DNA of 64,000 bases, from positions 288,001 through 352,000 of the forward strand of contig CM000432.1 in NCBI GenBank assembly GCA_000165345.1. Reading direction: 5' to 3'. A program made the translations under genes and the position numbers. The notes below the pieces were generated by a model. It saw only the letters and a program-made list of their open reading frames with translations. It was not told the origin of the DNA and searched no databases. Positions 103 to 34,600 of this stretch are shown one piece after another (position 1 is the first letter of the stretch; every line of letters begins with the position of its first letter).

Positions 103-1770
103 ATGAGGCTATTTAAATGGAGGAAAGAATCAAAAAAAATAGTATTTCAAAATAAGAGAAGAAATACGATCAATTATGTAATTGAAAATTTGGAAAAAAA
201 TGAGAAGAATATTCAAAAGGAATATCATGAGAACTGTTTTGAAAAAAGTATTAAAGAAAGCTTGGCAAATAATCATTCTACAGATGATTTAATGTTAAAA
301 AAAGAGCAGATTGAAATGGGAAAAGTTGATGATAATGGTGATTTTTTTCCACTAGAAAATAATTTTTTATGTTTAAAAGAATACATGGTGAATTTGAATA
401 ATGAAAAAAATTATAATGAATATATGAATTTATTACCAAATGATTCAGGCAGGCATAATTATTTAAGTTCAAACAATTCAGAAGATTACAAATTTTATTC
501 ACTTGATTATAATATAGAGGAAAATAAAGATTTTTCAAATATGGAATCAGAATATGCAAGTAGCCACGAATTTTCTAAATTAATGATGAAAAATTCTAAA
601 TTTAAAAATATTATTGTTGATTTTCCATCAAAATTTAAATCTGTTGGTGAAAATAATTCAAAATCAACTTTATCAAAAAGATCTGAAAAATTATCGAAAT
701 CGTTTTCATTGAATAATATTGACATACCTAAAATAAATAATGGAAAAAATGATAAAGAATTGGAATTATTATTTCAAAAGATAAAAAAATTCATGAGAGA
801 AAAATATGGTGAATATAAAAGATTATTAGAAGAAGTTAGTTTATGGGAAGAAAATGGATATAAAAATGGAATCAAATTTTATAAAAAGAAAGAAAATAAT
901 AATGATTCTTATACAGTAATTAGAGGTATAATTGATACAGATATTAGCAAAGAAAATGAATCAATTTATGAAAGCTTACGTAAGAAAAAAATTACAAATA
1001 TAAAAAATAATTGCCATTTAAATGATATAATATCATCAAAAGAATTGATTAATTATGTTTGGGAGACTGATCCACTTTCATATGATAATACTGTTGATAG
1101 AAGTAATAGAGTATATACATGGGATGATGGGAATCCAGGATTTTGTATATATTATCATTCATATAAGGGAGCTTTTGGAGTTCAGGGCAGAGATTTTATG
1201 TTAATTGGATATAAAGATGTAATTAATAATAAAGATCAATTTTCATCATGTGAGATTTCTAACTTGGCAACTTTATCATCTAGTTCACCAAGTAGAGCAA
1301 ATTCTCCAAGTTCCAATTTTCATAATAATAAAAGGATGATCATAAATAATATATCACCAAGTAGATTAAAGATATGGTCAAAAAAGAATAAAAAAAATTG
1401 TAATAATAATATTAAAACTCAGCTACAAGGAATTAAGTCAAATATTAATGATTCAGCATTCTTTATATCATCTGATTTATCAAAGGAATTAAGTGATGAT
1501 AAAAAATTTCATTCATTAATACAAAATATATATAATCCATCTTTTGTTAAAGCAAAATGTTATTTGAATGGAGTAAAAGTTGAAAAATTAACAATAAATA
1601 ACAATATTATTTTGAGGATGGATATATTGTGGATTGGAGATTTAAATGGTAAACTTCCTGAATTTTTGAAAAGAACAGTGCTTTCATCATCTTTAAGTAC
1701 TATTAAAGTACTAAAGGATAAATATATTGAAAAGAAAAAGAATGAATTGTTAAGTATAATCACAAATTAA
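103..1770 (+). CDS. START (StAR-related lipid-transfer) domain protein with an Asn-rich N-terminal half
   Basis: Uninterrupted 555-aa ORF starting at the ATG at 103. The C-terminal part (RDFMLIGYKD ... ILRMDILWIGDLNGKLPEFLKRTVLSSSLSTI) matches the START-domain pattern RDFV..R ... L.W.L.IDLKGWLPK.I.N, as in StAR/PCTP. The N-terminal half is low-complexity Asn/Lys-rich. Confidence 0.55.
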   Translation: MRLFKWRKESKKIVFQNKRRNTINYVIENLEKNEKNIQKEYHENCFEKSIKESLANNHSTDDLMLKKEQIEMGKVDDNGDFFPLENNFLCLKEYMVNLNNEKNYNEYMNLLPNDSGRHNYLSSNNSEDYKFYSLDYNIEENKDFSNMESEYASSHEFSKLMMKNSKFKNIIVDFPSKFKSVGENNSKSTLSKRSEKLSKSFSLNNIDIPKINNGKNDKELELLFQKIKKFMREKYGEYKRLLEEVSLWEENGYKNGIKFYKKKENNNDSYTVIRGIIDTDISKENESIYESLRKKKITNIKNNCHLNDIISSKELINYVWETDPLSYDNTVDRSNRVYTWDDGNPGFCIYYHSYKGAFGVQGRDFMLIGYKDVINNKDQFSSCEISNLATLSSSSPSRANSPSSNFHNNKRMIINNISPSRLKIWSKKNKKNCNNNIKTQLQGIKSNINDSAFFISSDLSKELSDDKKFHSLIQNIYNPSFVKAKCYLNGVKVEKLTINNNIILRMDILWIGDLNGKLPEFLKRTVLSSSLSTIKVLKDKYIEKKKNELLSIITN

Positions 1771-3937: not shown

Positions 3938-6900
3938 CTACTTTTCACTTGTTACAATATTTATATTAACATTAGTATTCAAGACTTCATCTTCCACATT
4001 TTTACTACTCTCAACTTCCCCATTGATGATTGGGGATATACTTTGATTTGAAGTATTGAGACAATCTCCTCCGTCTTCCATTCTTTCCTCTCTTTCTTCT
4101 TTTCTTATATTCACATTTAAATTTGTATTACTTCCATCTTTAACTTTTGAACTTAAATTTGCAACAATAATACTATTTGCATTACGTCCAGAAATGCTCA
4201 TATTATTATTTGTATTGTTTCCTCCTCCTCCACTCCTTAATACTGCCTCTCCACTATTCACAGCGTTTAGTCTACACTGAATAGCCAATTTCTTTGCCTC
4301 ATTGAACCCATATTTTTTCACATAAAAATGTCTTGAGTGTCTTTTTCTATTCTGATCATACCATTCTGCTACCCATTCTTGATCTCTAGTCTTCCAATAT
4401 ACACCTGGAATTCCTGATTTATAACTAATTCCTCCCATATTCTTCTTTTTTGGAGATGTTATAGCTTTAATCTTTGAACTTGATGAAGAAGCTGGAGTGG
4501 AAGAAACTGTTGGAGCAGTAGATTCTGAAATTTCCAAAATATTGGCTGAATCTTTTATCATTGAAAAACTTGTTGAGTTTGAAGAAATCGAAGAATCTAC
4601 TGATGATGATGTTACTGATCTTGAAATCTTCTTCTCCTCCATTAAATTATCTGTTATATCTCCATTACTTGTACAATTATTTCCAATAATATTAATATTT
4701 CCATCACTTATACTACCACTGATATTGCTTCCACTATTTTTTAAAAAATTTTCATTAGCTATATTCATATTGTTTTCAATATTAATATTAATATTATTAT
4801 TATTGCTACTATTATTATTATTACTATTATTGCTAAAACTCGAATTTCCAGAAATTAAAGGCTCAAAAGATGTCAATAAGTTACTTATTCCTTGGTTATA
4901 ATTCATCATTTCTTCTCTTAATGGGTCAATTTTTTCCAGATTAATGGCTTCAACCATATTTGTATCGCTTCTAGGAACTAATATTCCATTTTCTTGTGAT
5001 ATTATCTTTTTAATCATTCCATTAATATCCATATTAGTATTATTACCATTATTGTTTTGTTGGCACTGAGACTGAATTTGAAATTGGCTTTGATTCTGAG
5101 ATTGATTTTGAGTTTGGTTCAAATGATTCAGTAATATGTTTTCTGTTAGATTTCCTGGAATATTCTGAAATTGATCTAAATTATTCAAGGATAATGATCC
5201 AAAATTATTATTACTACTTGTCGGTACCGATTTATTAGATCCCATTAAATTCTGTAATATGTTATACATATATTGGCTCTGGTGATTGCTTAGATGATTA
5301 ATATGATTATTTCCAGAATTGAATGTATTATTAATCGTTCCATTAGCTCCACTTGCTTGATTTATTCCAAGCATATTTGCCAAATTCGTATTCAAACTTG
5401 AATAGTTACTAAAATACCCTCCAACTCCATTATTAACTCCATTACCCAGTAATAAACTATTCATCATTTTACTTTTTGTCATTCCTTCAAGAGTAGAATC
5501 ATTTAACATTTGCAAAGGAGATAGATAATTAAAATCAATAGAATTCAACATATTTAAAGATGGTGAATTATTATAATTTCCATTGATATTATTGGTGTTG
5601 TTGTTCTTAGTAGTAAACCCTTCAGAATTATCACCAAAAAATTGATGCTTTAACATATTACCATAATAACTATTCAAATAATTGGAAATCATAGAATTGA
5701 GATTAACATTCATGTTATTAGCGTTATTTATATTACTTGGGCTTGAGCCACTTAATGCTCCATTCAAAAGTAACATATTTGATAGAATCATATTATTGTA
5801 ATCAGTTACCATATTATTGGTACCAACATTTCCGGTATTAGCTCCAAAATTACTGTTATTTGTACCTATAAGTCCATTATAACTGCTGTTATTAGTGCCA
5901 GTATTACTATTATTAGTATTGTTATTATTGCTATTATTATTGTTGCCACCATATAAATATTGCATTAATTGACTTAATAATAGCTGATAACTATTATTTT
6001 GAACAAGTATTGGTTGGCTCCCTTCAGTAGAATTATTATTATTATTATTACTTAAGCCATTTAAAGCAGAGAAGCTAGAACCATTCAAATTAATTAATGA
6101 AGAACTACTATTGCCGTTATTGTTATTATTACTATTACCATCGGCATTCAAGGGATTTATAATTCCAGAATTACCATAATTGTTGAAAATATTAAAACAA
6201 GAATTTGTAATTCCTGAAGAACCAGAGTAATTATTATGATATTTAAATTCTTTATTATTAACATACTCTACTACATTATCTCTCAATTTTTTTTCATTGA
6301 TTAACTTTACCCTCCATTCTATTGCTTTTAATCTTGAAATATCAATTCCATCCTCGCCAATCTCATAAGCAAAAGATTGAGTACATGTTTCATGTGTTAT
6401 TGAATCTAGCCAAACTCCTATCCAGACTTTATTTATTGGATGCCAAAATATTCCCTCATATTCGGCATCTTCTTTTAAATGTTTCATTTCTTCCATAAGT
6501 AACCCAATACCTTCATCACTCATATTATTCATAATTTTTTGTATATTCTTTTTCTCCATCAAATTCATAACAATTGATCTATCATCCTTTAATAAGTATT
6601 CAGGCCTTTCATATTCTGCTGTTCCATACTTTGCAATTCTCATTCCTTTTATACCTCCAATATAATTATGAGAGCCTATTGATGCACCTACTCCAGTCTC
6701 ACCCTGATGGCCACCACCTATATAGCAACTTTTATTCATATTTAAATACATCTTCCCTGTAAGACTAGTTTCATGTAACTTTCTTGCTGTTGCTTTTCCA
6801 TTTTCAATTGCATCAACCCTTGATTTTATTGCCATTTGCTTTGCATCTTCAAAACCATATACTCTTGCTGAAAAGCCGTGAGTAATTCTTCTTCCTGAAA

Positions 6901-7417
6901 TAGAATCACTCCACTGAGCAATCCATCTTTGACTACTTTCTTGCCAATAAACTCCAGGAACCCCACTTTGATGTTCTGCTCTTCTTAATCTAGTTCCAGT
7001 TCCTTTTCTAGTAGACACTATAGAACTATTAAAATCTTTTCTGCCAACTTCCACAGTTGTAACACCCTCCTCGCTGTTCTTTTCCTCATCTGATTTAGAA
7101 TCTTCATCATTAATAGCTTCGTCTTTATTAATAAAACTATCCTCTTGGTTCTGAACTTCTATATAATTCTGCTCCATAGTAACATCATCAATGATATTTT
7201 TAGAATTTTCGTCTGGTGTTTCAACATGATTTTCAATTTGAGATTGGACTTGTTGAATTTTACTATTACCAACTTCAACTTCGTTAGATTTATCAAAATT
7301 TTCACCAATTCCACATGTTGGTGTATCTTCTTGTGTAGAGTCCATAGTAGTATACTGACTCCAGTCTACAACTTCTTTATCAATAAAAACCTTTCCAGTT
7401 TCTAATTTTTCCTCCAT
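3938..7417 (-). CDS. ApiAP2 transcription factor (two canonical AP2 domains plus one AP2-like domain), Asn/Ser-rich
   Basis: 1159-aa ORF. AP2 domain 1 lies at about nt 6781..6970 (SGVPGVYWQESSQRWIAQWSDSISGRRITHGFSARVYGFEDAKQMAIKSRVDAIENG). AP2 domain 2 lies at about nt 4260..4420 (SGIPGVYWKTRDQEWVAEWYDQNRKRHSRHFYVKKYGFNEAKKLAIQCRLNAV). An AP2-like segment lies at about nt 6260..6465 (GIFWHPINKVWIGVWLD...FAYEIGEDG...AIEWR). The long Asn/Ser low-complexity linkers are typical of apicomplexan AP2 factors. Confidence 0.85.
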   Translation of the reverse strand: MEEKLETGKVFIDKEVVDWSQYTTMDSTQEDTPTCGIGENFDKSNEVEVGNSKIQQVQSQIENHVETPDENSKNIIDDVTMEQNYIEVQNQEDSFINKDEAINDEDSKSDEEKNSEEGVTTVEVGRKDFNSSIVSTRKGTGTRLRRAEHQSGVPGVYWQESSQRWIAQWSDSISGRRITHGFSARVYGFEDAKQMAIKSRVDAIENGKATARKLHETSLTGKMYLNMNKSCYIGGGHQGETGVGASIGSHNYIGGIKGMRIAKYGTAEYERPEYLLKDDRSIVMNLMEKKNIQKIMNNMSDEGIGLLMEEMKHLKEDAEYEGIFWHPINKVWIGVWLDSITHETCTQSFAYEIGEDGIDISRLKAIEWRVKLINEKKLRDNVVEYVNNKEFKYHNNYSGSSGITNSCFNIFNNYGNSGIINPLNADGNSNNNNNGNSSSSLINLNGSSFSALNGLSNNNNNNSTEGSQPILVQNNSYQLLLSQLMQYLYGGNNNNSNNNNTNNSNTGTNNSSYNGLIGTNNSNFGANTGNVGTNNMVTDYNNMILSNMLLLNGALSGSSPSNINNANNMNVNLNSMISNYLNSYYGNMLKHQFFGDNSEGFTTKNNNTNNINGNYNNSPSLNMLNSIDFNYLSPLQMLNDSTLEGMTKSKMMNSLLLGNGVNNGVGGYFSNYSSLNTNLANMLGINQASGANGTINNTFNSGNNHINHLSNHQSQYMYNILQNLMGSNKSVPTSSNNNFGSLSLNNLDQFQNIPGNLTENILLNHLNQTQNQSQNQSQFQIQSQCQQNNNGNNTNMDINGMIKKIISQENGILVPRSDTNMVEAINLEKIDPLREEMMNYNQGISNLLTSFEPLISGNSSFSNNSNNNNSSNNNNININIENNMNIANENFLKNSGSNISGSISDGNINIIGNNCTSNGDITDNLMEEKKISRSVTSSSVDSSISSNSTSFSMIKDSANILEISESTAPTVSSTPASSSSSKIKAITSPKKKNMGGISYKSGIPGVYWKTRDQEWVAEWYDQNRKRHSRHFYVKKYGFNEAKKLAIQCRLNAVNSGEAVLRSGGGGNNTNNNMSISGRNANSIIVANLSSKVKDGSNTNLNVNIRKEEREERMEDGGDCLNTSNQSISPIINGEVESSKNVEDEVLNTNVNINIVTSEK

Positions 7418-12412: not shown

Positions 12413-13342
12413 TCATTTGGGACAATTGGGAAAGATGAGTATATTAATAAGTTGAATCGTTTTTAAAAATGCTAAAGTTTCTTTTGGAATAATAGAATAT
12501 CTTGGAATAATGCAAATCAATTTTTTATCACTTGCATATTCAATACAATATCCAGAAGAAAGTTTATTATCTGAATCAATAAAAAATAATGATGTAATTT
12601 TTATTTCATTGGAATATTGAATAATCACTGGATTCAAAGTTAAGTTTTTATCAATTTCATCACTTATCTCAATATCATTATTCAAGCTAATATAATCATT
12701 AAATTTGGATATTGAATCAATTTTAGTAACATCTGGAGAATTTCTTGGATCAAGTATGTTAAGTTGAACACAACCAACTTTTGTTTTTGATTTTAAATCA
12801 TCTTTTAAAGAATAATTAATTATGTAACTATACCAGTCATTAAATTTGTTTAATGCAGAAGATGTAAAATATATTGGTACTCTAATTTTTGGCTCATAAA
12901 ATACTATTCCATCGTTTCCCACAGGTCTTTCATATTTTTGAACTTCTCTTGTTTCATCTATTCCATTAAAAGATGATTCATCCGAACCCATACAAAAAAT
13001 GGCATCCAATCTATTAATATTTGCAGGTATTGCATATTCTAGCATTGATATTCTAAATGTTGAGCCAATTTCAAAAAGAAATGTATCATGGCGTTCACTT
13101 TCAGAACTATTTAAATTACTAACTGGATTCTTAATTAAAATAGAAAATGGATTACGTACATTTTTATTCTTCATCTTAATTGACTCTTGACATATACCAC
13201 AAAATGGGTCGTTTCCTTTATTAACATTATCTATATTTTTAAATACATGCTCAAGATTTGGCGTACCTTGTTCGGTACCAGAACCTAAGAAAAGAATAAA
13301 GCTACTCATATCTCTTGTTGGCTTATGAGAATGTGCATGCAT
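12413..13342 (-). CDS. PhnP-like MBL-fold paralog with a degraded metal-binding motif (probable pseudo-enzyme)
   Basis: Aligns with the 10153 protein: FILFLGSGTEQGTPNL / ILFVGTGVSSSVPLL; RNPFSILIKNP / RNNVSILVRIP; and DAIFCMGSDESSFNG in place of SVILTHFHNDAVAGF. The His cluster is entirely replaced. The start could instead be the internal Met (MSSFILFLGSG) at 13309. Confidence 0.5.
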   Translation of the reverse strand: MHAHSHKPTRDMSSFILFLGSGTEQGTPNLEHVFKNIDNVNKGNDPFCGICQESIKMKNKNVRNPFSILIKNPVSNLNSSESERHDTFLFEIGSTFRISMLEYAIPANINRLDAIFCMGSDESSFNGIDETREVQKYERPVGNDGIVFYEPKIRVPIYFTSSALNKFNDWYSYIINYSLKDDLKSKTKVGCVQLNILDPRNSPDVTKIDSISKFNDYISLNNDIEISDEIDKNLTLNPVIIQYSNEIKITSLFFIDSDNKLSSGYCIEYASDKKLICIIPRYSIIPKETLAFLKTIQLINILIFPNCPK

Positions 13343-13475: not shown

Positions 13476-13686
13476 TTTACTATTTCAGTGAAAATTATAT
13501 TGCAGCAAAAGTAATATTCTCTAATTGACATATTTCAGAATTTATAATTTAATATTATACAAAAGTTGATAATTTAAGAATTTTCCGAGTGAAGTGGAGT
13601 TTTTGTTACACTCATTTAATAACTTAATAGCAATACAAAAATTCTTGGATCTTAAACAAGTAATTAGTGAGCATAACACATTTAAA

Positions 13687-14403
13687 ATGTCTAGGAAGAA
13701 AGAAAAATTGAATGCTGCAAAAACTAATTCCAGTCAGAATTTGCAATTATTAATAGTTTGGACGATATTCTTGGGTATTATTGTATTATTTTTCCACTTA
13801 ATTTATAAATATTTGATTAAAAACATATTTAATTATATATTAAATTTTATTAGTAAAAAAGATTCCAGCTTTAATGAAAATGCTAATAATATTAGCACTA
13901 ATAATAATAATCGAGATATCAATACTAGCTCAAGTGCATTTGATAGGGGTGAAATTGATGCAAATCTACAAAGTGGAAATTTTACTTCTGATAATTCAAT
14001 ATTTAGAGTTTCAATCGGATTTTGCTACAGTAAAGAAGCTGAGAATCTTAAGAAGCTAAAGGTAAAAGAGTCTCTGATCAAGCTTTCTGGTTTTACTGAT
14101 CTTTTTCTATTTATTCAGGTTGATACTGAGCAAGATGAACTGGTTATATTGAATTATATGCAAGAATTTGGAATATTTGAAGCTGGATTAAAGAAACATA
14201 GACTTGTTTTTTGTGAAAAACCTGAATCTATTCCAAATATGGCAAGACAACTACAAGCTAATATGCATATTGATACAAATCAAGATAATGCACAGAAACT
14301 TTTAAATAAGGTTCCAAATATTTCTATTCTAACTTTCGACGATGACGGAGATTCATTATATGAATTGGTTGAAACAATTGAAAATGTTGTAAACTCAAAA
14401 TAA
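13687..14403 (+). CDS. Hypothetical N-terminally anchored membrane protein
   Basis: The ORF is open from 13594 (GTG) but the first ATG is at 13687 (MSRKKEKL). One TM helix (LQLLIVWTIFLGIIVLFFHLIY) is followed by a soluble domain. I recognise no family. Confidence 0.45.
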   Translation: MSRKKEKLNAAKTNSSQNLQLLIVWTIFLGIIVLFFHLIYKYLIKNIFNYILNFISKKDSSFNENANNISTNNNNRDINTSSSAFDRGEIDANLQSGNFTSDNSIFRVSIGFCYSKEAENLKKLKVKESLIKLSGFTDLFLFIQVDTEQDELVILNYMQEFGIFEAGLKKHRLVFCEKPESIPNMARQLQANMHIDTNQDNAQKLLNKVPNISILTFDDDGDSLYELVETIENVVNSK

Positions 14404-14504
14404 TAATGATAAAGTTCATCAAATAATACGATTAAAAAAATTACTATAATATATCTAATTTATAATATGTGAATAAATTTTAATTGGAATTATATTTATA
14501 TATA

Positions 14505-16304
14505 TTAAAGCAATCTTTTATTTCTTCTAAAAAAGTAATGAATATAAAGACCAGACCCAACCAGTAAAAAAATGGATGTTTTATTATTTAATATAAAGCT
14601 TTTGCATACATTATAATATGATAAGAAGATTCTTGAAAATACATTTGAGATTTTGAAGTTATCATTAAACTTTTTTTGAATGGTAAATAATGAATTGGCA
14701 CTTAAATTTACTGCCTTTGTTGAATTATTACTATTATTAACAGGCTTTGTCATTGCTTCAAGCTCAGAATCTTCAATTTCAGATGAATTCATAAATAACT
14801 CATCATCAATAAAATCTTCATCAGAATTATCTTCATCATCAGAAACTTTTAATTGTTGATTTACATCTTCAATATTATAATTTTTTGCTTGTTTTAATGC
14901 AAGCTGACCACACGCACCGAAAATTCCATCCCCCATTTTTCTTCTAACAGTTACAAATATATTCAAATCAATAAGTACCTTGGCAAATTTGGTAATAATT
15001 TCTTTAGATGGAGTGGAAAAACGAGTACTTGTATTGGTTTTATTGTATGGAATGAGATTAACAATAGCAAAATTGGTTCTATTAAAGTCTTTAGATAATT
15101 CTTTAAAGATGGTACTCGCAATATGGCTTTTAAAGTTTTTATTAATTATTTTGTTATCAGACATATAATTAATATTCATTTTAACACTATCATCTCTATT
15201 GTCTATTATTTCCTCAATAATATTTTTTGAAATTGGAGTATTTTTCAGCAAATTTGCAAGTTCAACTGCATGATCTTCAGAGTCATTCACATCCTTAAGC
15301 ATTGTATATTCAATAATTATCATTTTATGTCCATATAATAATTTATTCGAGATTAAAATATCATCATAATTCATATTGTCTTTAATGTGATCTTTATTTC
15401 TATCATCTAATAAATTTTTATAACATTTATTAATTATCGTCTTGAAAATAAAAATATCCAAAGATCTCATTAAATCAGAAATTTTATATAATCTTGCAAT
15501 TGGAATAATTCTCTCTCTAAGTGATTGATTTGGTGCATGTAAGCTTAAACAAAGTCCAACTCCAGGTAAATCATCTGCAAGATTAATAATATTTGAAGGT
15601 ATACCAACAGTACTAACCAGAATATGTCCAGAAGATAACGAGAATATTCTAGGGTCAACCATTAATCTAATTGAATCAATAACTTCATCATAATTTTCCA
15701 ACGGTTCTCCCATTCCCATAAAAACAACATTTCTCACAGGTTCTTTGAGTATATTTTTTATATAATATAATTGCTGTAAAATTTCTCCTGATAAAAGTGA
15801 ACCTCTAAGACCCATAGATCCTGTTGCACAAAACATACAACCCATTCTACATCCAATTTGCGATGATACACATATTGAGATTCTCTTATACTTGGATGAA
15901 GTACTTATTTCTTGTTGATTACTATCATTGTTTTTATTATTACTATTACTGTTACAAATGTTTGTATTTTCATTAACCTGATCATCACCGTATCTCATAA
16001 TTACAGCTTCAATTTCATGAGAATCTTGTAATCTGAAGATAATTTTGGTTGTATTACCATCTTTGGATGTTTGTGAATTAATTAATTGTATATTTAAGAT
16101 AGAAAATTGTTCATTTATAATTTTATAGGCAGCTTTTGGTATATCCTTAATTTCTGACATATTCTTAATGCCTTTTTGTACAATATTCCTCCAAATTGTA
16201 TATGCATGAATTCTTTTGACACCTGCATCGTCTAATGCTTTTGTAAGAGACTTATAATCAAAAATTGAATGTTTTTTTATATCTGTTCTTCTCTTATTCT
16301 CCAT
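14505..16304 (-). CDS. RlmN/Cfr-family radical-SAM methyltransferase homolog (RNA adenine C2 methyltransferase-like)
   Basis: CVSSQIGCRMGCMFCATG matches the RlmN CxxxCxxC cluster (CVSSQVGCALECKFCSTA). NVVFMGMGEPLENYDEV matches NVVMMGMGEPLLN. SLHAPNQSLRERIIP matches SLHAPNDEIRDEIVP. IEYTMLKDVNDSEDHAVELANLLKNTP matches [34 protein letters not shown]...FVTVRRKMGDGIFGACGQLAL matches INLIPWNP...[21 protein letters not shown]. An RlmN-type N-terminal domain is present with no obvious transit peptide. There is also an internal insertion of about 60 aa and an acidic C-terminal extension of about 100 aa. Confidence 0.75.
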   Translation of the reverse strand: MENKRRTDIKKHSIFDYKSLTKALDDAGVKRIHAYTIWRNIVQKGIKNMSEIKDIPKAAYKIINEQFSILNIQLINSQTSKDGNTTKIIFRLQDSHEIEAVIMRYGDDQVNENTNICNSNSNNKNNDSNQQEISTSSKYKRISICVSSQIGCRMGCMFCATGSMGLRGSLLSGEILQQLYYIKNILKEPVRNVVFMGMGEPLENYDEVIDSIRLMVDPRIFSLSSGHILVSTVGIPSNIINLADDLPGVGLCLSLHAPNQSLRERIIPIARLYKISDLMRSLDIFIFKTIINKCYKNLLDDRNKDHIKDNMNYDDILISNKLLYGHKMIIIEYTMLKDVNDSEDHAVELANLLKNTPISKNIIEEIIDNRDDSVKMNINYMSDNKIINKNFKSHIASTIFKELSKDFNRTNFAIVNLIPYNKTNTSTRFSTPSKEIITKFAKVLIDLNIFVTVRRKMGDGIFGACGQLALKQAKNYNIEDVNQQLKVSDDEDNSDEDFIDDELFMNSSEIEDSELEAMTKPVNNSNNSTKAVNLSANSLFTIQKKFNDNFKISNVFSRIFLSYYNVCKSFILNNKTSIFLLVGSGLYIHYFFRRNKRLL

Positions 16305-16584
16305 GATTATTAATTATTGATAATCACATGAATTAAGTTTGATTTAATTAATATTATTGGTTTGACAAGTCTTATTTTTTTCTTATAATTGGAAAAAAGT
16401 CTTAATAAATTCTCAGTTTAAAGAATGAAGAGGATAAATACTTGATACTTGTTACCTAATTTAAAATAATATTACTAACTTATTAGAGTTAGAAAAAGAA
16501 ATTGATTAGGTTGCAGCTAAAATTTGTACCTTTTTCTAATTAATAATCAATTCTAAATATAATCAAAAAATAAGAAATGCACCT

Positions 16585-16596
16585 GGCGCTGGCGCC
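16585..16596. promoter_or_regulatory. Palindromic double E2F-like box (GGCGCTGGCGCC)
   Basis: Lies in the divergent spacer between the RlmN-like gene (-) and Rpt2 (+). Confidence 0.4.
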
Positions 16597-16811
16597 AGAG
16601 CTATGAATACCAATATATTTACTATATTAAACTTGACTATAGATATTTTCAGCTTTGCTATTTACATGAAAGCACCTATTATTAATATTTAAGAACAAAG
16701 AAACTTTCAAAGTTCCAAAAAATTTATTTGATTATCTTTTTAATATTTTTTCATGCAATAATTATTAATAATAGTGATTGTTTAGGGCTTTTTAAAATTT
16801 AAGAGCAATTA

Positions 16812-16874
16812 TGCGCGCCAAATGTTTGATCCATTAAATTATTGGGTATAAGAATGAGGGGGCGGGCAAATTTT
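16812..16874. promoter_or_regulatory. Two E2F-like boxes (TGCGCGCCAAATG and GGGGGCGGGCAAATTTT) upstream of Rpt2
   Basis: GC-rich islands 270-330 bp upstream of the Rpt2 ATG at 17145. Confidence 0.4.
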
Positions 16875-17144
16875 AAGGGGGTATATTATATAAATAATTT
16901 ATTGGGGCAAAAGTAATAATAATAAATAAATGCGTTAAATTTTAACTGTATTGTTATAATAGCATTAATAAAGTACAAGAAGATTTCTAAGGTACAAATT
17001 TCAATAAGGTAATAATTTTGAGGAGAAGAGTAATAAAAGGAATCTTTTGGAGAGACTGGCAATTCAAATTAAGGCAGATTTGAATATAATACACACACAA
17101 TAAAATATATGCTCAAGTAAGGTAAAGGTAGGTTAGAGAAAAGT

Positions 17145-18482
17145 ATGGGAAATTCACATGGTGTACTTGGGGAGGGGGGGATGAAAAATAATAGGAAGTC
17201 AAAGAACAATGGTAAAGATGAGAAAAAGAAATTAGAATCCGCCCCACCTCCAATGGAAATGAAAAGGAAAAGAAAGCAAAAAGGCCCACCACAATATGCT
17301 AGATTGCCGGCAGTAGTTCCAAATGCCAAATGTAGACTAAGATTATTAAAGTATGAGAGAATTAAAGACTATTTAATGATGGAACAAGAATTTATTACAA
17401 GTATGGAAAGTGTAAAGCCATCAGCAGAGACAGCAGAAGAAGAACACAATAAAGTGGATGATTTAAGAGGGTCACCAATGAATATTGGAACTTTAGAGGA
17501 AATTATAGATGAGAATCATGCAATAGTTTCATCATCAGTAGGGTCTGAGTATTATGTAAATATTTTATCGTTTGTAGACAAGAACCAACTTGAACCTGGA
17601 AGTTCAGTATTATTACATAATAAAGTATATTCTGTTGTTGGAATAATGAATGATGAGGTGGATCCTTTAGTTTCTGTAATGAAAGTTGATAAAGCTCCTT
17701 TGGAAAGCTATGCAGATATTGGTGGTTTAGAACAGCAGATCCAAGAAATAAAGGAGGCTGTAGAAATTCCTTTAACACATCCTGAATTATATGATGACAT
17801 TGGTATTAAACCTCCAAAAGGAGTAATTTTGTATGGTCCTCCAGGAACTGGTAAAACTCTTTTAGCTAAAGCTGTTGCAAATGAAACTTCAGCAACCTTT
17901 TTAAGGGTAGTTGGAAGTGAACTAATTCAAAAGTATTTAGGAGATGGACCAAAACTTGTACGTGAGTTATTCAGAGTTGCTGAGGAAAATGCTCCAAGTA
18001 TTGTTTTTATTGATGAAATTGATGCTGTTGGTACTAAGAGACATGACTCTCAAAGTGGAGGTGAGAGAGATATTCAAAGAACTATGCTTGAATTACTTAA
18101 TCAATTGGATGGATTTGAGGCAAGAGGGGATGTTAAAGTTATTATGGCAACTAATAAAATTGAAAGTCTAGATCCAGCTCTTATTAGACCTGGAAGAATT
18201 GATAGAAAGATTGAACTTCCCAATCCAGACTGTAAAACTAAAAGAAGAATCTTTCAAATTCACACAAGCAAAATGACTCTATCTGATGATGTTGACTTGG
18301 AGGAATTTATTATGGCAAAAGATGATATTAGTGGGGCAGATATTAAAGCAATTTGTACCGAAGCTGGTCTTCTGGCTCTTAGAGAAAGAAGGATGAGAGT
18401 TACACAAGAAGATCTCAGGAAAGCTAAAGAAAAGGCTTTATATAGAAAGAAGGGTGGAATACCTGAAGGCTTATATCTCTAG
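17145..18482 (+). CDS. RPT2: 26S proteasome regulatory ATPase subunit Rpt2 (PSMC1/S4)
   Basis: Near-colinear identity to human PSMC1: N-terminal MG (a myristoylation-type start), [49 protein letters not shown], Walker [61 protein letters not shown], and the C-terminal GIPEGLYL. Confidence 0.95.
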
Positions 18483-25822: not shown

Positions 25823-28591
25823 TTATTTATATAATGCATGGAAATTATTTGGGAATACAATTTTTTGTTGAACAGCATCAATAGTTATAGGAGTTGGTAC
25901 TGGAGCAACATATTGAAGGTTGTTGTTTGTATTAGTATTTGGTACTATATTGATATTACCATTTAAAAGTGTAGTGTTAGTTGTGTTTTGAGTTGCATTC
26001 ATATTAAAAAAACTGCTATTGCTTCTACTATTAAGTAAGTTTGCCGGGTAGTACTGGTTGTTATTATTATTACTGGTATTATTCAATAGAGGTGTTGTGT
26101 TACTCCTTATTAAATTCGTATCAGTTGTTTTTAAATTATTAGCTTCTATATAGTTTGTAGGTTGCAAGTCTAAAAGTTTGACTTCAGGAGAATAAATTAA
26201 ATATGAATCTGTTTCATTGCTAGCCACATTCTTATTGATTGTGTTTATGTTCTTTTCTGTATTGCTACTCGCTTGAAATTCATTTATTGAATTAATTGTT
26301 TGAATTGTTGCTTTATAAGCTCTTACAATTGGGGCATTAGTTCCGTAATTGGGCTGATTATTTGATTCAATTATATTAGAATGTTCTATTTTTTGATCAT
26401 TTAAATATTTATCCACTGTACTGCTTTTGTTGCTAATGATAAAGGTTGAATTATTCACTAAATTTGTTGTTTTAACTTTAGGTACAATAGTTTCTAAATC
26501 ACTATTCATTTTTCTTAGATTTCTTTTGCTAAGAATATCAGCAGATATAATTGACTCATTATTCATGTATGAATCATCAAAAATACCCCCTTTTAAATTA
26601 CTCATTGAAATCAAATTTGTTTTTGAGTTGGTTCTATAAAAACTATTCGAGTTTGAATTATTATAATCATCAACTAATCTTTCTTTTGATTTTGTCCTTT
26701 TTTTTGATAGGCTATTAACTGTTGGTTTAGTAAAGTTAGATAATTGATCATTAACTTTGATATGCTCCTTTGAACTGGTTTTTGAATTATTAAAATCTGT
26801 ACCTTTGCCAGATTTAACTAAGTTCTTTCCATTTATTCTTTCGTTTTCTTGAACATTCTTCTGATCAGAAATTGTTTTATTTACTTTTTTTTCTGTTGTT
26901 TTATAATTTTGTAGTGATAAATTTGGTCTAGTATTACTCTTCTTAATCTTTTCTAATTCAGAAACATTCTTACTGATATTAGATTCATTTTTATGACAAT
27001 CATCTTTGTTATTTACGCATTTATCGTCTTCAATTTCTTCAGTAATTTTTTTAATATCATTGGTTGGTTTAGCAGTTTTCGTTATATCTTTATGGTCATC
27101 CTCGCTTTTATTATCGCTTTGTTTTTGAATAATAGCTAGTTCGTTATCATTTATCCGTTCATCAAAACTAGTTTCATATTGAGTTTTACTTTCATCCTTT
27201 TCAATCAATTCACATTCCGCATCTACTGGAGTAATAACCAAATGATGGTTATTAATTTGCTCCACTGGGTCTCGTGGAGTTGATATTGCGCTTTTAATAT
27301 GCTTACATTGAGAAAGGATATTCAATTTTGAAGGAATAGATGACCTCAACTCATGGAATCTTTTCTCTATTCCTGAAATAACTGAATTTTTCGGAACTTC
27401 TGTCTGATCGTTGTTGATTCTAAGTAATTCGGCACCACCTTTTAATATATTATTATTAATATTATAATCATGGCGCCTGATGTGTGCATGCATATTTAAA
27501 TAATTATTTTGATTATCGATTTCTTTATTAATAAATAATACTCGATTATCTTGTGATAATTCTTTAATATTTAATAGATTGGTATTGATTTGATCGTCTG
27601 TTAAAGCATTGTTATTTGGAAGTTCGCCACTATTCATTGAATCAAAAGTGTTATCTTCTTGATGAATAAGATTACCATATTTGCTTTTTAACTTCATTCT
27701 AAGATTAATAATTGAGTTATCTAATTGATCTTGTAATGAAAATAAAGTAAAGCTTAGTTTGTTGATTTCTTGATCTTTCTTATTAATTAAAAAAAAATCT
27801 CTATTAATTTGTTCCTTTAATTGTAAATTCTCCATATGTATGAGATTTACTTTCTTTCTTAATACAGATTCTAAATAGAAAGAATCTTCATCTTTTTTAT
27901 TAAGTGTATCAACATCTTCGATATGTCTTTGTAACAAATCATTCATTCTAAGAGTAAAGAAATGAACTCTATTTCTATTAAGCATATCAGTAATCATTTC
28001 TTTTTCCAATAAGAATTCATTATTTAAACTAACTCCTTTCTTTAATATCCTTAAATCCAATAATAACAATTTCAAGTAATCGTTACTTTTAAATATTCCA
28101 GAATTATTATCAGAACTAATCAATTGATTATTCAATAAACTTGAATCCAATAATTTCTTATCATTTTGCCTTATTCTCTCGATAAGAATATGTTTGTTTT
28201 CTTCATTACAATTCAATTCATTAAATAAATGTGTTAATTCACTATAATTTCTTTTAATTTCTAGCAAACTTTCATAGTTTTCCTTCTGAGTTTCATTTTT
28301 TGTTAGCTCTTCATTCAAAATTTTCAAAGTCTCTTTTTCGTTGTTTATATCATATTTCTCTAAAAGAGCTATAAAATTACTATTGTTAAATAATTCATAT
28401 ATTTTGCCATTAATTTTATCCTCCAACTGAATATATTTATCTGTCAGATTCATTCTACTTTCATTTTTATCATTAGCTTTCATTTCTTCCATTTTTGTGA
28501 TTTCTGAATCTTCTTGATTCTTTTTTTTAATCTTTGGTGTATCATATTCAATGATATCTTCTTCGTGAACTATTAATTTCTCTGTATTCAT
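25823..28591 (-). CDS. Hypothetical large coiled-coil / low-complexity protein (922 aa)
   Basis: Uninterrupted ORF. The N-terminal half is heptad-like and Glu/Lys/Leu-rich (predicted coiled coil). The C-terminal half is Asn/Ser/Thr-rich. I recognise no catalytic motifs. Confidence 0.55.
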   Translation of the reverse strand: MNTEKLIVHEEDIIEYDTPKIKKKNQEDSEITKMEEMKANDKNESRMNLTDKYIQLEDKINGKIYELFNNSNFIALLEKYDINNEKETLKILNEELTKNETQKENYESLLEIKRNYSELTHLFNELNCNEENKHILIERIRQNDKKLLDSSLLNNQLISSDNNSGIFKSNDYLKLLLLDLRILKKGVSLNNEFLLEKEMITDMLNRNRVHFFTLRMNDLLQRHIEDVDTLNKKDEDSFYLESVLRKKVNLIHMENLQLKEQINRDFFLINKKDQEINKLSFTLFSLQDQLDNSIINLRMKLKSKYGNLIHQEDNTFDSMNSGELPNNNALTDDQINTNLLNIKELSQDNRVLFINKEIDNQNNYLNMHAHIRRHDYNINNNILKGGAELLRINNDQTEVPKNSVISGIEKRFHELRSSIPSKLNILSQCKHIKSAISTPRDPVEQINNHHLVITPVDAECELIEKDESKTQYETSFDERINDNELAIIQKQSDNKSEDDHKDITKTAKPTNDIKKITEEIEDDKCVNNKDDCHKNESNISKNVSELEKIKKSNTRPNLSLQNYKTTEKKVNKTISDQKNVQENERINGKNLVKSGKGTDFNNSKTSSKEHIKVNDQLSNFTKPTVNSLSKKRTKSKERLVDDYNNSNSNSFYRTNSKTNLISMSNLKGGIFDDSYMNNESIISADILSKRNLRKMNSDLETIVPKVKTTNLVNNSTFIISNKSSTVDKYLNDQKIEHSNIIESNNQPNYGTNAPIVRAYKATIQTINSINEFQASSNTEKNINTINKNVASNETDSYLIYSPEVKLLDLQPTNYIEANNLKTTDTNLIRSNTTPLLNNTSNNNNNQYYPANLLNSRSNSSFFNMNATQNTTNTTLLNGNINIVPNTNTNNNLQYVAPVPTPITIDAVQQKIVFPNNFHALYK

Positions 28592-31857: not shown

Positions 31858-32054
31858 TTCCAAATGGTAAATATAGATTATTGCACAATTTATTTGAAAT
31901 TAAAATAGCGAAGAGAAGATAACAATATATAAAGAAAGGGACATTTTTAAGGGCTTTTGATCAATTATCCTATAAATTTGTTCACTTGTTTAAGCTATAT
32001 CTGCCTCTTATACTTTTTATTCTTATCAAAATTTTGGAATGTGTAGAAAATAAT

Positions 32055-32918
32055 ATGGGTGGAGATGGAGGTAGTATTCCAAAAAGAGCAGATGTTGTGA
32101 AAACTAAGGGTTATGGATTTAAGAGAAATTTGGGTGGAATGGGTTACATGCCAAATGCACAAGTAAAATTAACAAATGAAGAAAATTCAACAAAACTTAA
32201 AATGCATGAAAGATGGACAAAATGCTATCTAACTAACGTAAGTTTGTCATTCCATTGCACTTTTTTTTACAAAACTAGTTCTTTGTTTTCTTTGGCATTC
32301 TCAACATATTTAAATATATATTATGAGATTCCAAATGATACAAACCTTCACATTAAGTAATCATTTCCTTTTTTTTTCGAATAAACTAACTATTACCATT
32401 TTCAGGAGCCATTAAATCCCCCAGTGGTAATATGTAACAAGGGATTTCTTTATAACAAAGAAGCTGTTATTAATAAATTACTTAGTAAATCCAAAACAGC
32501 TCCACACATTAAAAAGCTTTCAGATGTATTCCAAGTTAAAGTAAGTAATATTCATCTTGATTACTTTCATCATCTTTATTTATTTATTTATTTTTTTTTT
32601 ACTCTCAACATTTCAATTAATTAATATTTAATTTATGAAATGTACAATAATAATCTTTAGAACAAATTTAACAATATATTAAATTGCTTAATATGTCCAG
32701 TAACTAACAAAAATCTGGATTACTATACCAAAGCTTCATATAATAAATGCTGTCAACATATTATTGCATACTCTTCTTCTTATTTAAAAAGTTCCAATTT
32801 AACCAAAATTGGAGAAAGAAACGTTCAAAATAAACATCAAAAAGTTTGTATTAACTGTAATACTAACATTAATCCACAACATAATGAAATTAAGCTGTTC
32901 TCTGATACAATAGATTAA
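32055..32918 (+). CDS. RTF2: Replication termination factor 2 (Rtf2/RTFDC1)-like protein, three exons (32055..32237, 32406..32540, 32661..32918)
   Basis: The ATG at 32055 gives MGGDGGSIPKRADVVK (compare Rtf2 MGCDGGTIPKRHELVK). The ORF-track start at 31986 is an upstream extension. Donor AAC|GTAAGT at 32238, acceptor TTCAG at 32405. Exon 2 EPLNPPVVICNKGFLYNKEAVINKLLSKS...HIKKLSDVFQVK (compare RRPIVACELGRLYNKDAVIEFLLDKS...HIKSIKNV). Donor AAA|GTAAGT at 32541, acceptor CTTTAG at 32660. Exon 3 ...NCLICPVTNKNLDYYTKASYNKCCQHIIAY... (compare FICPVVGLEMNGRHRFCFLRCCGCVFSE). All junctions are phase 0. Confidence 0.65.
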
Positions 32919-32920
32919 AA

Positions 32921-34600
32921 TTAATCTTCAAAAAATGAAAATCCGTCAGCATAACTTTCGGTTCCTTTTACAGCGTATTCCGGTAATTGATTTTCACCAC
33001 TACTGCCGCCAGAAATTACAAATGGAGATTCAGAAGTTCTTTGTAGTCCTCTTTGTTCATAACCCATACTTCCAAGATATTGAATTTGACCTTGAACGCC
33101 ATCAGTAACATCAATATTTTTAAATGTTCCTTCTGTGCCTCTTAAGTTTCTCATTCCAATACTATCACCTGTTAAATCTCCTCCTCTAGTTCTCTTCCTT
33201 TTAAGTCCATATCCCAATCCTCCTAATAGCCCTAAACCTGCAATACTTCCCACTACCGCTCCAGCTACTACTCCTGGATCGACCGAACTTTTAGTTGTAG
33301 CTGCGGCTGTAGTTGTAGTTAATTCAGTAGAAACTGTTGATGGTGCAGTAGTTGTCATAGTGGTTGGTGTAGTGGTTGGAGGACTTGTTGCTGTTGTTGG
33401 AGGACTTGTTGCTGTTGTTGGAGGACTTGTTGCTGTTGTTGGAGGACTTGTTGCTGTTGTTGGTGGACTTGTTGCTGTTGTTGGTGGACTTGTTGCTGTT
33501 GTTGGAGGACTTGTTGCTGTTGTTGGTGGACTTGTTGCTGTTGTTGGTGGACTTGTTGCTGTTGTTGGAGGACTTGTTGCTGTTGTTGGTGGACTTGTTG
33601 CTGTTGTTGGAGGACTTGTTGCTGTTGTTGGTGGACTTGTTGCTGTTGTTGGAGGACTTGTTGCTGTTGTTGGAGGACTTGTTGCTGTTGTTGGAGGACT
33701 TGTTGCTGTTGTTGGAGGACTTGTTGCTGTTGTTGGAGGACTTGTTGCTGTTGTTGTTGGACTTGTTGCTGTTGTTGGCGGATTTGTATCAGTGCTCAAT
33801 GTTGTGTCAGTGCTCAATGTTGTGTCAGTTGATTGCGTTGTAACTGGAGGTAAAGTTGTTGTTGATGCAGGTGGTGCAACAGGACCTCCTCCAAAGCCAT
33901 ATGTTACTACTTTATCTTTTGGGTCGTCTTGGTTTTCATTTGAAGAAACACCATTCGCGTTTGAATTGTCGGGTTCATCATCTTGATTTTTTCCAGTAAA
34001 ACCAGAATCATCTGACACGGCATCCCCTTCTTGATTCCCTCCAATTGAAAGATTACTTGATGAATCTTGTACAGATGTTGAATCTTTTCTTTGTTCGTCT
34101 GATGAAGTTTCAAACCCGGATGTTTTTTCATAGTCACCATCTTCAAAATCAATGGATGCATCGTTCCCAAAGCCTTGACTGGTTTCCTCGAGATCAGATC
34201 CTCCAACACTAGTACCACCAGCACTAGTACCACCAACACTAGTACCACCAACACTAGTACCACCAATGATCGTACCACCAATGCTCGTACCACCAATACT
34301 CGTACCACCAATACTCGTACCACCGGCACTAGATCCTCCAACACTAGTACCACCAATACTAATACCTCCAATACTAGTTCCATCAATACTCGTACCACCA
34401 ATACTCACTTTATCTTCATTTTCCAAATCAATTCCATCATTAAAACTCATTCCATCAATCCCAGAATTCATGCTCTCTGTTTCCATATTAGGAAGGCTTA
34501 AGTCTGATAATTGAAGACTTTTGTTATCAATTTCTTCTCCATTTAATAAATTCAAAATATTAAAGAAAAAGAAAATTAAAGAAAATATTTTATTATTCAT
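32921..34600 (-). CDS. Mucin-like type I membrane glycoprotein (signal peptide, Gly/Thr/Ser repeats, Thr/Pro repeat array, TM helix, short cytoplasmic tail)
   Basis: The N-terminus MNNKIFSLIFFFFNILNLLNGEE is a signal peptide. It is followed by about 14 copies of GGTS[IV], then an acidic region, then about 19 copies of TTATSPP flanked by TLSTDT repeats. A TM helix (VVAGAVVGSIAGLGLLGGLGYGL) with a KRKRTR stop-transfer follows, then an 85-aa cytoplasmic tail. The Thr/Ser/Pro arrays are typical O-glycosylation substrates. Confidence 0.75.
   Translation of the reverse strand: MNNKIFSLIFFFFNILNLLNGEEIDNKSLQLSDLSLPNMETESMNSGIDGMSFNDGIDLENEDKVSIGGTSIDGTSIGGISIGGTSVGGSSAGGTSIGGTSIGGTSIGGTIIGGTSVGGTSVGGTSAGGTSVGGSDLEETSQGFGNDASIDFEDGDYEKTSGFETSSDEQRKDSTSVQDSSSNLSIGGNQEGDAVSDDSGFTGKNQDDEPDNSNANGVSSNENQDDPKDKVVTYGFGGGPVAPPASTTTLPPVTTQSTDTTLSTDTTLSTDTNPPTTATSPTTTATSPPTTATSPPTTATSPPTTATSPPTTATSPPTTATSPPTTATSPPTTATSPPTTATSPPTTATSPPTTATSPPTTATSPPTTATSPPTTATSPPTTATSPPTTATSPPTTATSPPTTATSPPTTTPTTMTTTAPSTVSTELTTTTAAATTKSSVDPGVVAGAVVGSIAGLGLLGGLGYGLKRKRTRGGDLTGDSIGMRNLRGTEGTFKNIDVTDGVQGQIQYLGSMGYEQRGLQRTSESPFVISGGSSGENQLPEYAVKGTESYADGFSFFED
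33377..33778. repeat. 21-bp tandem repeat, about 19 near-identical copies (GGAGGACTTGTTGCTGTTGTT), encoding TTATSPP on the minus strand
   Basis: Directly visible periodicity. The units differ only by GGA/GGT third-position changes. Confidence 0.9.
34200..34410. repeat. 15-bp tandem repeat, about 14 copies (ACTAGTACCACCAAC variants), encoding GGTS[IV] on the minus strand
   Basis: Directly visible periodicity within the mucin N-terminal domain. Confidence 0.85.

Follow-up and report, generated by a model that had tools for sequence, protein, structure and literature searches.

Two eukaryotic enzymes and two bacterial ones are the closest described counterparts of the gene considered here, an open reading frame (ORF) for a predicted RlmN-type radical S-adenosylmethionine (SAM) RNA methyltransferase of Cryptosporidium parvum, located on the reverse strand of contig CM000432.1 within positions 288,001 to 352,000 (the window, meaning the whole 64,000-nucleotide stretch that was analysed). 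The Arabidopsis protein RLMNL3 (At3g19630) is a non-chloroplast enzyme that writes 2-methyladenosine (m2A) at position 37 of cytosolic tRNA, and its loss removes m2A from cytosolic tRNA only; the modification was not found in plant cytosolic 25S/18S rRNA, nor in HeLa RNA (Duan et al. 2024, PMC10838301). According to the same authors, a "clade III" of sequences from green plants, heterokonts, and chytrids has no close prokaryotic relatives (PMC10838301). TgRlmN, a 68-kDa protein of Toxoplasma, is held in the outer mitochondrial membrane by a tail anchor and exposes its catalytic domain to the cytosol; its overexpression slows growth only when the cluster cysteines and the transmembrane domain (TMD) are both intact (Padgett et al. 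2018, PMC5749711). A 2025 study located the cytosolic Fe-S assembly (CIA) machinery at the surface of the Toxoplasma mitochondrion and dated the origin of the C-terminal TMDs in Elp3 and RlmN to an early point in myzozoan evolution (PMC12674569). Of the bacterial enzymes, Escherichia coli RlmN (structures 3rfa and 5hr7) produces both m2A2503 of 23S rRNA and m2A37 of tRNA, while Cfr, which shares its superfamily and fold, is a C8-methyltransferase of 23S rRNA A2503 that is associated with antibiotic resistance.

The C. parvum protein is best read as neither an organellar enzyme nor a recent bacterial transfer. With a probability of about 0.68, we take it to be a cytosol-facing, membrane-anchored m2A37 tRNA methyltransferase of the RLMNL3/TgRlmN clade, most likely residing on the mitosome, a reading drawn from sequence relationships and from analogy with the characterized relatives. 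The gene itself is real and intact, with a predicted activity:

14505..16304, reverse strand: whole coding sequence, 599 aa plus stop, single exon (ORF, exact public match, RlmN profile, and ratio of nonsynonymous to synonymous substitution rates, dN/dS)

One unbroken 599-aa ORF fills this interval in the ORF listing, with an in-frame TAA four codons upstream of its ATG, in a window of ~26% G+C whose ORFs are long and intronless. The initial annotation of the locus had guessed a Cryptosporidium-like lineage, rightly, as the translation is identical to the C. parvum proteins QOY42006.1 (CPATCC_001600) and EAK87719.1 in the public databases, and its proposal that an RlmN-type enzyme is encoded in this nuclear genome is supported as well. 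None of this is new in itself. GenBank names QOY42006.1 "RlmN/Cfr with Radical SAM domain", the first Iowa II annotation described EAK87719.1 as a "conserved protein with transmembrane region at C-terminus", and the gene and family assignment, the apicomplexan tail-anchored RlmN, and the cytosolic tRNA function of the clade are already public or published. The protein is an ordinary, previously annotated member of a known eukaryotic enzyme clade rather than an orphan bacterial enzyme without a substrate, and the value of the result is mainly corrective, in that the gene represents, in Cryptosporidium, an enzyme conserved among eukaryotes.

The clade assignment was made from neighbour-joining (NJ) distance trees over 339-341 well-aligned columns. 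The small tree comprised 29 named eukaryotes, 61 bacteria, E. coli RlmN (reference sequence taken from NC_000913), three Cfr sequences, and the Arabidopsis enzymes RLMNL1 and RLMNL2, aligned by L-INS-i and bootstrapped 500 times, and the large trees contained 185-188 sequences. The bacterial sample was the best 80 of the first 600 pattern matches, and Arabidopsis RLMNL1-3 were rebuilt from a machine-read supplementary figure, giving 424, 443, and 359 residues versus 431, 458, and 372. In the small tree, Cryptosporidium, Besnoitia, and RLMNL3 belong to a eukaryote-only clade with 96% NJ bootstrap support that leaves out the 61 bacteria, E. coli RlmN, Cfr, RLMNL1, and RLMNL2. The large trees likewise unite all eukaryote-type matches and RLMNL3 in one clade (72-75%), and the chloroplast enzymes RLMNL1 and RLMNL2 are placed among bacteria. 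RLMNL3 groups at 97-100% with a Brassicaceae protein (P0097) inside the clade that contains Cryptosporidium, and the Cfr sequences, together with five divergent bacterial sequences, are split with 100% support from everything else, including the C. parvum protein. The clade also has a signature, (D/N)IE(D/E), scored as x[IVLM]E[DE] soon after ACGQL, which is present in 100 of its 119 eukaryotic members compared with 0 of 60 bacterial sequences. The best explanation is that the protein is the Cryptosporidium member of a eukaryote-specific RLMNL3/TgRlmN clade, an assignment that the sequences suggest. It falls outside the mitochondrial and plastid clades and lacks a transit peptide. The view that eukaryotic homologs are usually organellar is too simple, given a large eukaryote-only clade that includes the non-chloroplast RLMNL3.

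The RlmN family is predominantly bacterial, and Cryptosporidium is known for bacterial gene acquisitions. A bacterial gene transferred into the Cryptosporidium lineage and kept for a new, non-translational role, which the initial annotation had entertained, nevertheless finds no support and seems to us scarcely credible. Among the matches listed, the best organism-named ones after Cryptosporidium are all eukaryotic, at 29-44% identity, and the named eukaryotes include chytrid fungi, oomycetes, land plants with ~372-aa proteins, Vitrella, Chromera, and a gregarine. The bacterial matches, from a scan with one genome per bacterial or archaeal species, have 24-35% identity, are spread over many phyla, and include no candidate donor. 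The 96% eukaryote-only clade, the complete absence of both the NIED motif and the tail anchor from the 60 bacterial sequences, and the conserved gene order from C. parvum to C. muris all speak against a transfer. The only prokaryotic sequence that adjoins the eukaryote clade comes from a Myxococcota metagenome-assembled genome (L035, JAWKRR010000024.1, match 1501-2280) and is without the NIED motif and the tail anchor; it was tried as a sister to the clade and rejected, that position having 78% support in one tree and 28% in a better-aligned tree. Within the genus, orthologues occur in all sampled Cryptosporidium species among the matches listed (98% down to 48% identity), the order Rpt2, RlmN-like gene, Pex22-like gene is kept in C. 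ubiquitum and C. muris, and comparison with C. ubiquitum gives a dN/dS of 0.14 for the whole protein, with 0.04-0.05 for the catalytic segments and 0.2-0.45 for the tail, the catalytic core being the most constrained part of the protein. These comparisons indicate a gene that is under purifying selection and vertically inherited within the genus.

Profile searches and structural comparison likewise place the protein with RlmN. The NCBIfam model TIGR00048 (RlmN) matches with E=1e-78 and 264.8 bits, its position 8 falling at residue 13, and the Cfr models reach 196-208 bits, at least 56 bits less than the RlmN model and below their own cut-offs of 468-550. The best sequence matches among solved structures are Cfr and RlmN, with Cfr 9p0p as the top single match (E=4.5e-41). 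An AlphaFold2 model built from 92 homologues (mean predicted local distance difference test, pLDDT, 81.5; predicted template modelling score, pTM, 0.77) matches the RlmN-type partial-barrel fold and its N-terminal accessory domain; in a Foldseek search of the PDB it is most similar to E. coli RlmN, the tRNA-crosslinked complex 5hr7 among the entries, and to a Sphaerobacter homologue (E ~5e-30), with target TM-scores of 0.82-0.89 against RlmN chains over the whole chain length, and Cfr follows behind RlmN at E=1e-20. A Cfr-type function was considered and rejected, as the RlmN profile outscores Cfr and the tree separates the two with 100% support; by both measures the protein appears closer to RlmN (C2) than to Cfr (C8). 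The catalytic apparatus of the RlmN/Cfr methylsynthases (class A radical-SAM methyltransferases) is complete in the alignment with E. coli RlmN, in which C145 corresponds to C118, C152/C156/C159 to C125/C129/C132, and C465 to C355, and MGMGEP (196-201), SLHAP (254-258), and GACGQL (463-468) are all present. The RlmN blocks that had been claimed from the sequence (CxxxCxxC, MGMGEP, and ACGQL) and the N-terminal domain thus hold in a proper alignment, and all five mechanistic cysteines are invariant among 92 aligned clade members. The catalytic features map as follows:

15870..15872, reverse strand: Cys145, equivalent to E. coli C118, the predicted resolver of the enzyme-RNA crosslink (aligned cysteines, translation)
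15828..15851, reverse strand: CRMGCMFC, the CxxxCxxC [4Fe-4S] motif with C152/C156/C159 (alignment, translation)
15702..15719, reverse strand: MGMGEP block, aa 196-201 (alignments)
14901..14918, reverse strand: GACGQL, aa 463-468, with Cys465, equivalent to E. coli C355, the predicted methyl carrier (aligned cysteines)

E. coli RlmN and the C. parvum protein share the fold, the N-terminal domain, the five cysteines, and MGMGEP at ~25% structure-based identity. The bacterial protein is soluble and has rRNA as a further substrate, whereas the C. parvum protein is enlarged by three insertions and, at the C-terminus, by a 130-aa extension that carries the membrane anchor. With RLMNL3, the C. parvum protein shares clade membership, the lack of a transit peptide, the catalytic residues, and (D/N)IE(D/E) after ACGQL, at ~32% BLASTP identity to the Brassicaceae orthologue or 40% over aligned columns; RLMNL3, in contrast, is a soluble protein of 372 aa, and neither the tail anchor nor the acidic tail nor insertions 2 and 3 are present in the streptophyte proteins.

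The membrane anchor lies at the extreme C-terminus:

14529..14582, reverse strand: tail-anchor transmembrane helix, aa 575-592, KTSIFLLVGSGLYIHYFF (hydrophobicity, AlphaFold2 helix 575-594, conservation)
14508..14528, reverse strand: basic C-terminal flank RRNKRLL, net charge +4 (stop codon at 14505-14507)

The helix and basic tail form a predicted tail anchor, a single TMD near the C-terminus with a basic flank and without a signal peptide, as in TgRlmN-type proteins, and the hydrophobic helix and the flank recur in each of the ten Cryptosporidium orthologues compared, which range from C. hominis to C. muris. At the other end of the protein there is no room for a presequence, as the conserved domain begins at residue 13 and a stop codon lies just upstream; RLMNL1 and RLMNL2, by comparison, carry N-terminal extensions of ~50-80 aa that the C. 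parvum protein is without. The earlier statement that the protein has no targeting peptide is therefore right for the N-terminus, where neither a presequence nor a transit peptide is found, but it overlooked the C-terminal anchor. Similarly, what had been described as an acidic tail of ~100 aa is acidic over residues 471-525; residues 526-574 are slightly basic, and these are followed by the hydrophobic stretch 575-592 and RRNKRLL.

Which membrane the anchor would select is the weakest step in the argument. The C. parvum TMD is short and moderately hydrophobic and is followed by a +4 flank, and a short, moderately hydrophobic TMD with a positive flank is the classical form of a mitochondrial outer-membrane tail anchor. 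These features, together with the Toxoplasma precedent, favour the mitosome outer membrane over the endoplasmic reticulum (ER). The same enzyme with the same substrate might instead be targeted to the ER, the nuclear envelope, or another endomembrane, which we regard as unlikely while still deserving weight. The tail-anchor signal is generic and nothing in the sequence tells the target membranes apart, chytrids, oomycetes, a diatom, and an ichthyosporean carry the anchor as well, and the C. parvum mitosome is a single tiny organelle. In C. muris, moreover, the TMD is more hydrophobic (Kyte-Doolittle 2.04), and higher hydrophobicity is more ER-like by the usual rules for tail anchors. Against this placement, TgRlmN sits on the outer mitochondrial membrane (PMC5749711), and mitochondrial targeting features of the CIA machinery are reported to be conserved across myzozoans, with C. 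parvum among the species compared (PMC12674569).

Tail-anchor-like C-termini are found in 84 of the 119 eukaryotic clade members compared with 0 of the 60 bacterial sequences, and in 103 of 135 further cluster representatives from a search of 50%-identity representatives. The lineages concerned include five chytrid genomes and the ichthyosporean Chromosphaera (Holozoa); oomycetes, a diatom, a brown alga, a chlorarachniophyte, and a foraminiferan; and the dinoflagellate Amoebophrya, chromerids, and apicomplexans, while streptophytes and Basidiobolus are without it. The sequences thus suggest an anchor that is widespread in the clade and not, as the Toxoplasma literature has it, an invention of myzozoans or "chromalveolates", which is a modest new point. 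A second such point concerns the purpose of the anchor. Cryptosporidium, to our knowledge, has neither a plastid nor an organellar genome or organellar translation, and the fact that it nevertheless keeps the anchor argues against the tRNA-import explanation offered for TgRlmN, a rationale that cannot apply in an organism with no mitochondrial genome to express, and would be compatible with a role in Fe-S supply. We tentatively propose, at slightly less than even odds, that the anchor is widespread and probably ancestral in the RLMNL3-type clade, that it does not serve tRNA import, and that Fe-S supply at the organelle surface or access to a local tRNA pool is the likelier function. Cryptosporidium in this respect represents a natural experiment on why radical-SAM tRNA enzymes sit at the mitochondrial surface in this lineage.

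The link to Toxoplasma was made through a coccidian relative. TgRlmN was not among the 120 matches listed, and a search of 50%-identity representatives with a myzozoan profile, screened for CxxxCxxC near residue 225 and a tail anchor, recovered Besnoitia but not Toxoplasma. The Besnoitia besnoiti protein (P0139, Sarcocystidae) has 593 aa, is tail-anchored, carries CxxxCxxC at 220 versus 225 in TgRlmN, belongs to the same 96% clade, and matches the C. parvum protein by BLASTP at 1e-75; we infer that it is the probable orthologue of TgRlmN. TgRlmN and the C. parvum protein are both apicomplexan radical-SAM RlmN-like proteins of similar size (68 kDa and 599 aa), and both possess CxxxCxxC and a C-terminal tail-anchor TMD. 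Insertion 3 (57 aa) and the lengthened form of insertion 2 are specific to Cryptosporidium and do not occur in the Besnoitia protein.

A few homologues in the clade have unusual names or domain content. Several of P0034, P0071, P0098, and P0224 (from chytrids and metagenomes) and P0055 are named 'sorting nexin' in their source records, and P0055, from Phytophthora kernoviae, combines sterile-alpha-motif domains (PF00536, PF07647) with the radical-SAM core. These sorting-nexin and sterile-alpha-motif combinations are either real fusions or merged gene models.

Taken with the chemistry of characterized RlmN, these features suggest how the C. parvum enzyme may work. After synthesis in the cytosol, the protein would enter an organelle membrane post-translationally by means of its C-terminal anchor; by analogy with Toxoplasma, this would most likely be the mitosome outer membrane, leaving the whole catalytic domain in the cytosol, where it would receive its [4Fe-4S] cluster from the cytosolic assembly pathway. 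Catalysis would follow the established ping-pong radical mechanism of RlmN, as the conserved residues imply: a first SAM would methylate Cys465, the [4Fe-4S] cluster on C152/C156/C159 would reductively cleave a second SAM, the resulting radical would add the methylene to C2 of adenosine, and Cys145 would resolve the protein-RNA crosslink. From orthology with RLMNL3, the substrate would be A37 of a few cytosolic tRNAs. CAA is common in 23 ORFs of the window (24.9 per thousand) and CGU, CGC, and CGA together are rare (4.1 per thousand), so, should the enzyme modify the same set of tRNAs as in plants, the quantitatively important target would be tRNA-Gln(UUG), the reader of CAA, far ahead of tRNA-Arg(ACG).

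Methylation of cytosolic large-subunit rRNA at the equivalent of 23S A2503, instead of or besides tRNA, was the other half of the earlier suggestion that the substrate must be cytosolic tRNA or rRNA. The bacterial enzyme is dual-specific and the catalytic apparatus is intact here. However, m2A is undetectable in plant 25S/18S rRNA despite the presence of RLMNL3, whose loss affects cytosolic tRNA only (PMC10838301), and a membrane-anchored cytosolic enzyme presumably could not reach the nucleolar pre-60S particle, the stage at which the peptidyl-transferase-centre nucleotide is exposed. We consider an rRNA substrate improbable; the tRNA half of the suggestion is the best inference, by way of RLMNL3, and the rRNA half finds no parallel in plant cytosolic rRNA.

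Several observations weigh against an anchored cytosolic m2A37 methyltransferase of the RLMNL3/TgRlmN clade. The inner nodes of the trees have less than 50% support, Apicomplexa do not come out as a monophyletic group, and Cryptosporidium sits on a long branch; its grouping with a diatom and an ichthyosporean was rejected as artefactual, and we make no claim of vertical inheritance within Alveolata from the tree alone. The TIGR00048 score of 264.8 bits is below the NCBI curated equivalog cut-off of 290 bits because three insertions split the match into three stretches. For this reason, the protein is filed in the wider RlmN-type family and its eukaryotic clade and not as a bacterial RlmN equivalog. 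The hydrophobicity of the predicted TMD is no more than moderate (Kyte-Doolittle 1.2 over 19 aa). Orthology with TgRlmN rests on the Besnoitia representative of a 50%-identity cluster and not on the TgRlmN sequence, and methyltransferase or m2A activity has not been demonstrated for TgRlmN itself (PMC5749711). Finally, ARAGORN and an Rfam scan at gathering thresholds found no RNA genes in the 64-kb window from which A37 of the C. parvum tRNAs could be read.

The remainder of the protein alternates between conserved domains and lineage-specific segments, listed here from the N-terminus:

15987..16304, reverse strand: N-terminal RlmN accessory (RNA-binding) domain, aa 1-106, without presequence (TIGR00048, AlphaFold2, upstream TAA)
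15885..15986, reverse strand: insertion 1, aa 107-140, N/S-rich disordered linker from the N-domain to the core (alignment, pLDDT)
15438..15884, reverse strand: radical-SAM core, part 1, aa 141-289 (PF04055 at 148-269)
15324..15437, reverse strand: insertion 2, aa 290-327, helical extension (alignment, AlphaFold2, dN/dS)
15237..15323, reverse strand: core segment, aa 328-356, with the IEYxLLxxVNDS block (alignments; dN/dS 0.04)
15066..15236, reverse strand: insertion 3, aa 357-413, 57 aa (alignment)
14895..15065, reverse strand: last part of the core, aa 414-470, including GACGQL (alignments; dN/dS 0.05)
14730..14894, reverse strand: acidic, mostly disordered segment, aa 471-525 (composition, pLDDT)
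14583..14729, reverse strand: linker, aa 526-574, N/S-rich and slightly basic (composition, AlphaFold2)

The N-terminal domain is modelled with high confidence (pLDDT 88-98; helices at 17-26, 32-44, and 57-66, strands at 73-105). The internal insertion of ~60 aa noted in the initial annotation is real; it corresponds to the 57 aa of insertion 3, is seen in Cryptosporidium only in the alignment, with a shorter version in C. muris, and has a dN/dS of 0.19. AlphaFold2 models it as a short helix (362-367), a disordered stretch (375-381), and a long, confidently modelled helix (382-406). Beyond it, the alignment reveals two more insertions, at 107-140 and 290-327. Insertion 1 is poorly ordered (pLDDT ~52) and variable within the genus (9-76% identity, dN/dS 0.29), and other eukaryotic clade members have insertions of variable length at the same site, where E. 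coli has none. Insertion 2 has a dN/dS of 0.04, a constraint equal to that of the catalytic core (aa 141-289: 68-97% identity across the genus, dN/dS 0.04), with helices nearby in the AlphaFold2 model at pLDDT 75-88; a shorter form aligns in Vitrella, Chromera, and the gregarine Porospora, with ~22 aa extra in Cryptosporidium. The acidic segment has 17 D/E versus 4 K/R and a pLDDT below 50, and it starts with the clade-specific NIED at aa 477-480, while the last 35 residues of the linker that follows are helical in the model. A Pfam scan of the protein found only Radical_SAM (PF04055, residues 148-269), with no known domain in the insertions or the tail.

These additions are among the points in favour of another reading, in which the protein has lost its catalytic activity or been given a new role as a scaffold, perhaps one on which the cytosolic Fe-S machinery docks. 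Such a role could accommodate the three lineage-specific insertions, of which one equals the core in constraint, the long disordered and acidic tail, and a whole-protein profile score under the cut-off. It is hard to reconcile, however, with the retention of every catalytic residue across the genus and the 92 aligned clade members, with the core being the part under the strongest constraint, and with a Toxoplasma phenotype that depends on the cluster cysteines (PMC5749711), and we judge a scaffold very improbable.

An active tRNA methyltransferase makes a direct prediction, namely that C. parvum cytosolic tRNA, most plausibly the tRNA-Gln(UUG) that reads the abundant CAA codon, should carry m2A37. 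It may also have practical implications, as animals, including the host, are without the enzyme, HeLa RNA is without m2A (PMC10838301), and TgRlmN has a CRISPR fitness score of -1.82 (PMC5749711); the absence of the enzyme from the host and the Toxoplasma fitness score make it a possible parasite-specific drug target.

Upstream, the gene shares a divergent intergenic region with a proteasome gene, the ORF at 17145-18482, which is C. parvum 26S proteasome subunit S4/Rpt2:

16305..17144, no strand: divergent intergenic region between the RlmN-like and Rpt2/S4 proteasome genes, a presumed promoter (ORFs, synteny)

Between the two genes, at ~16585..16600, lies TGGCGCCAGCGCCAGG, with two overlapping GGCGCC-type cores that we take to resemble the E2F-like upstream motif common in Cryptosporidium promoters. 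Downstream, an ORF on the forward strand (13594..14403) stands tail to tail with the RlmN-like gene, 101 bp apart, and encodes an N-terminal transmembrane helix and a Pfam HAD_Pex22 match (E=1.3e-10, 41.6 bits). The ORF as listed begins at GTG and is probably overlong on the 5' side, judging from the 193-aa gene model of C. ubiquitum. Cryptosporidium is not known to have peroxisomes. A Pex22-like remnant, together with Pex4, was previously reported in C. parvum (PMC5737649). In C. muris, a gene with an OPA3 domain lies between the RlmN-like and Pex22-like genes (L086, 4650..5315) and is absent from the same interval in C. parvum (14404..14504) and C. ubiquitum (L085). An OPA3 gene would fit the more complete mitochondrion of C. 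muris.

Elsewhere in the window, three ORFs have no Pfam match at E<=0.001: 12413..13342 (reverse strand, 309 aa), 103..1770 (forward strand, 555 aa), and 25823..28591 (reverse strand, 922 aa). The 1159-aa product of the reverse-strand ORF at 3938..7417 has two stretches that match Pfam AP2 (E=7e-29), which identifies it as a predicted ApiAP2 transcription factor. The G+C-richest stretch of the window, 32001..34000 (0.352 versus ~0.26), overlaps a 559-aa ORF at 32921..34600 on the reverse strand and an antisense ORF of 283 aa.

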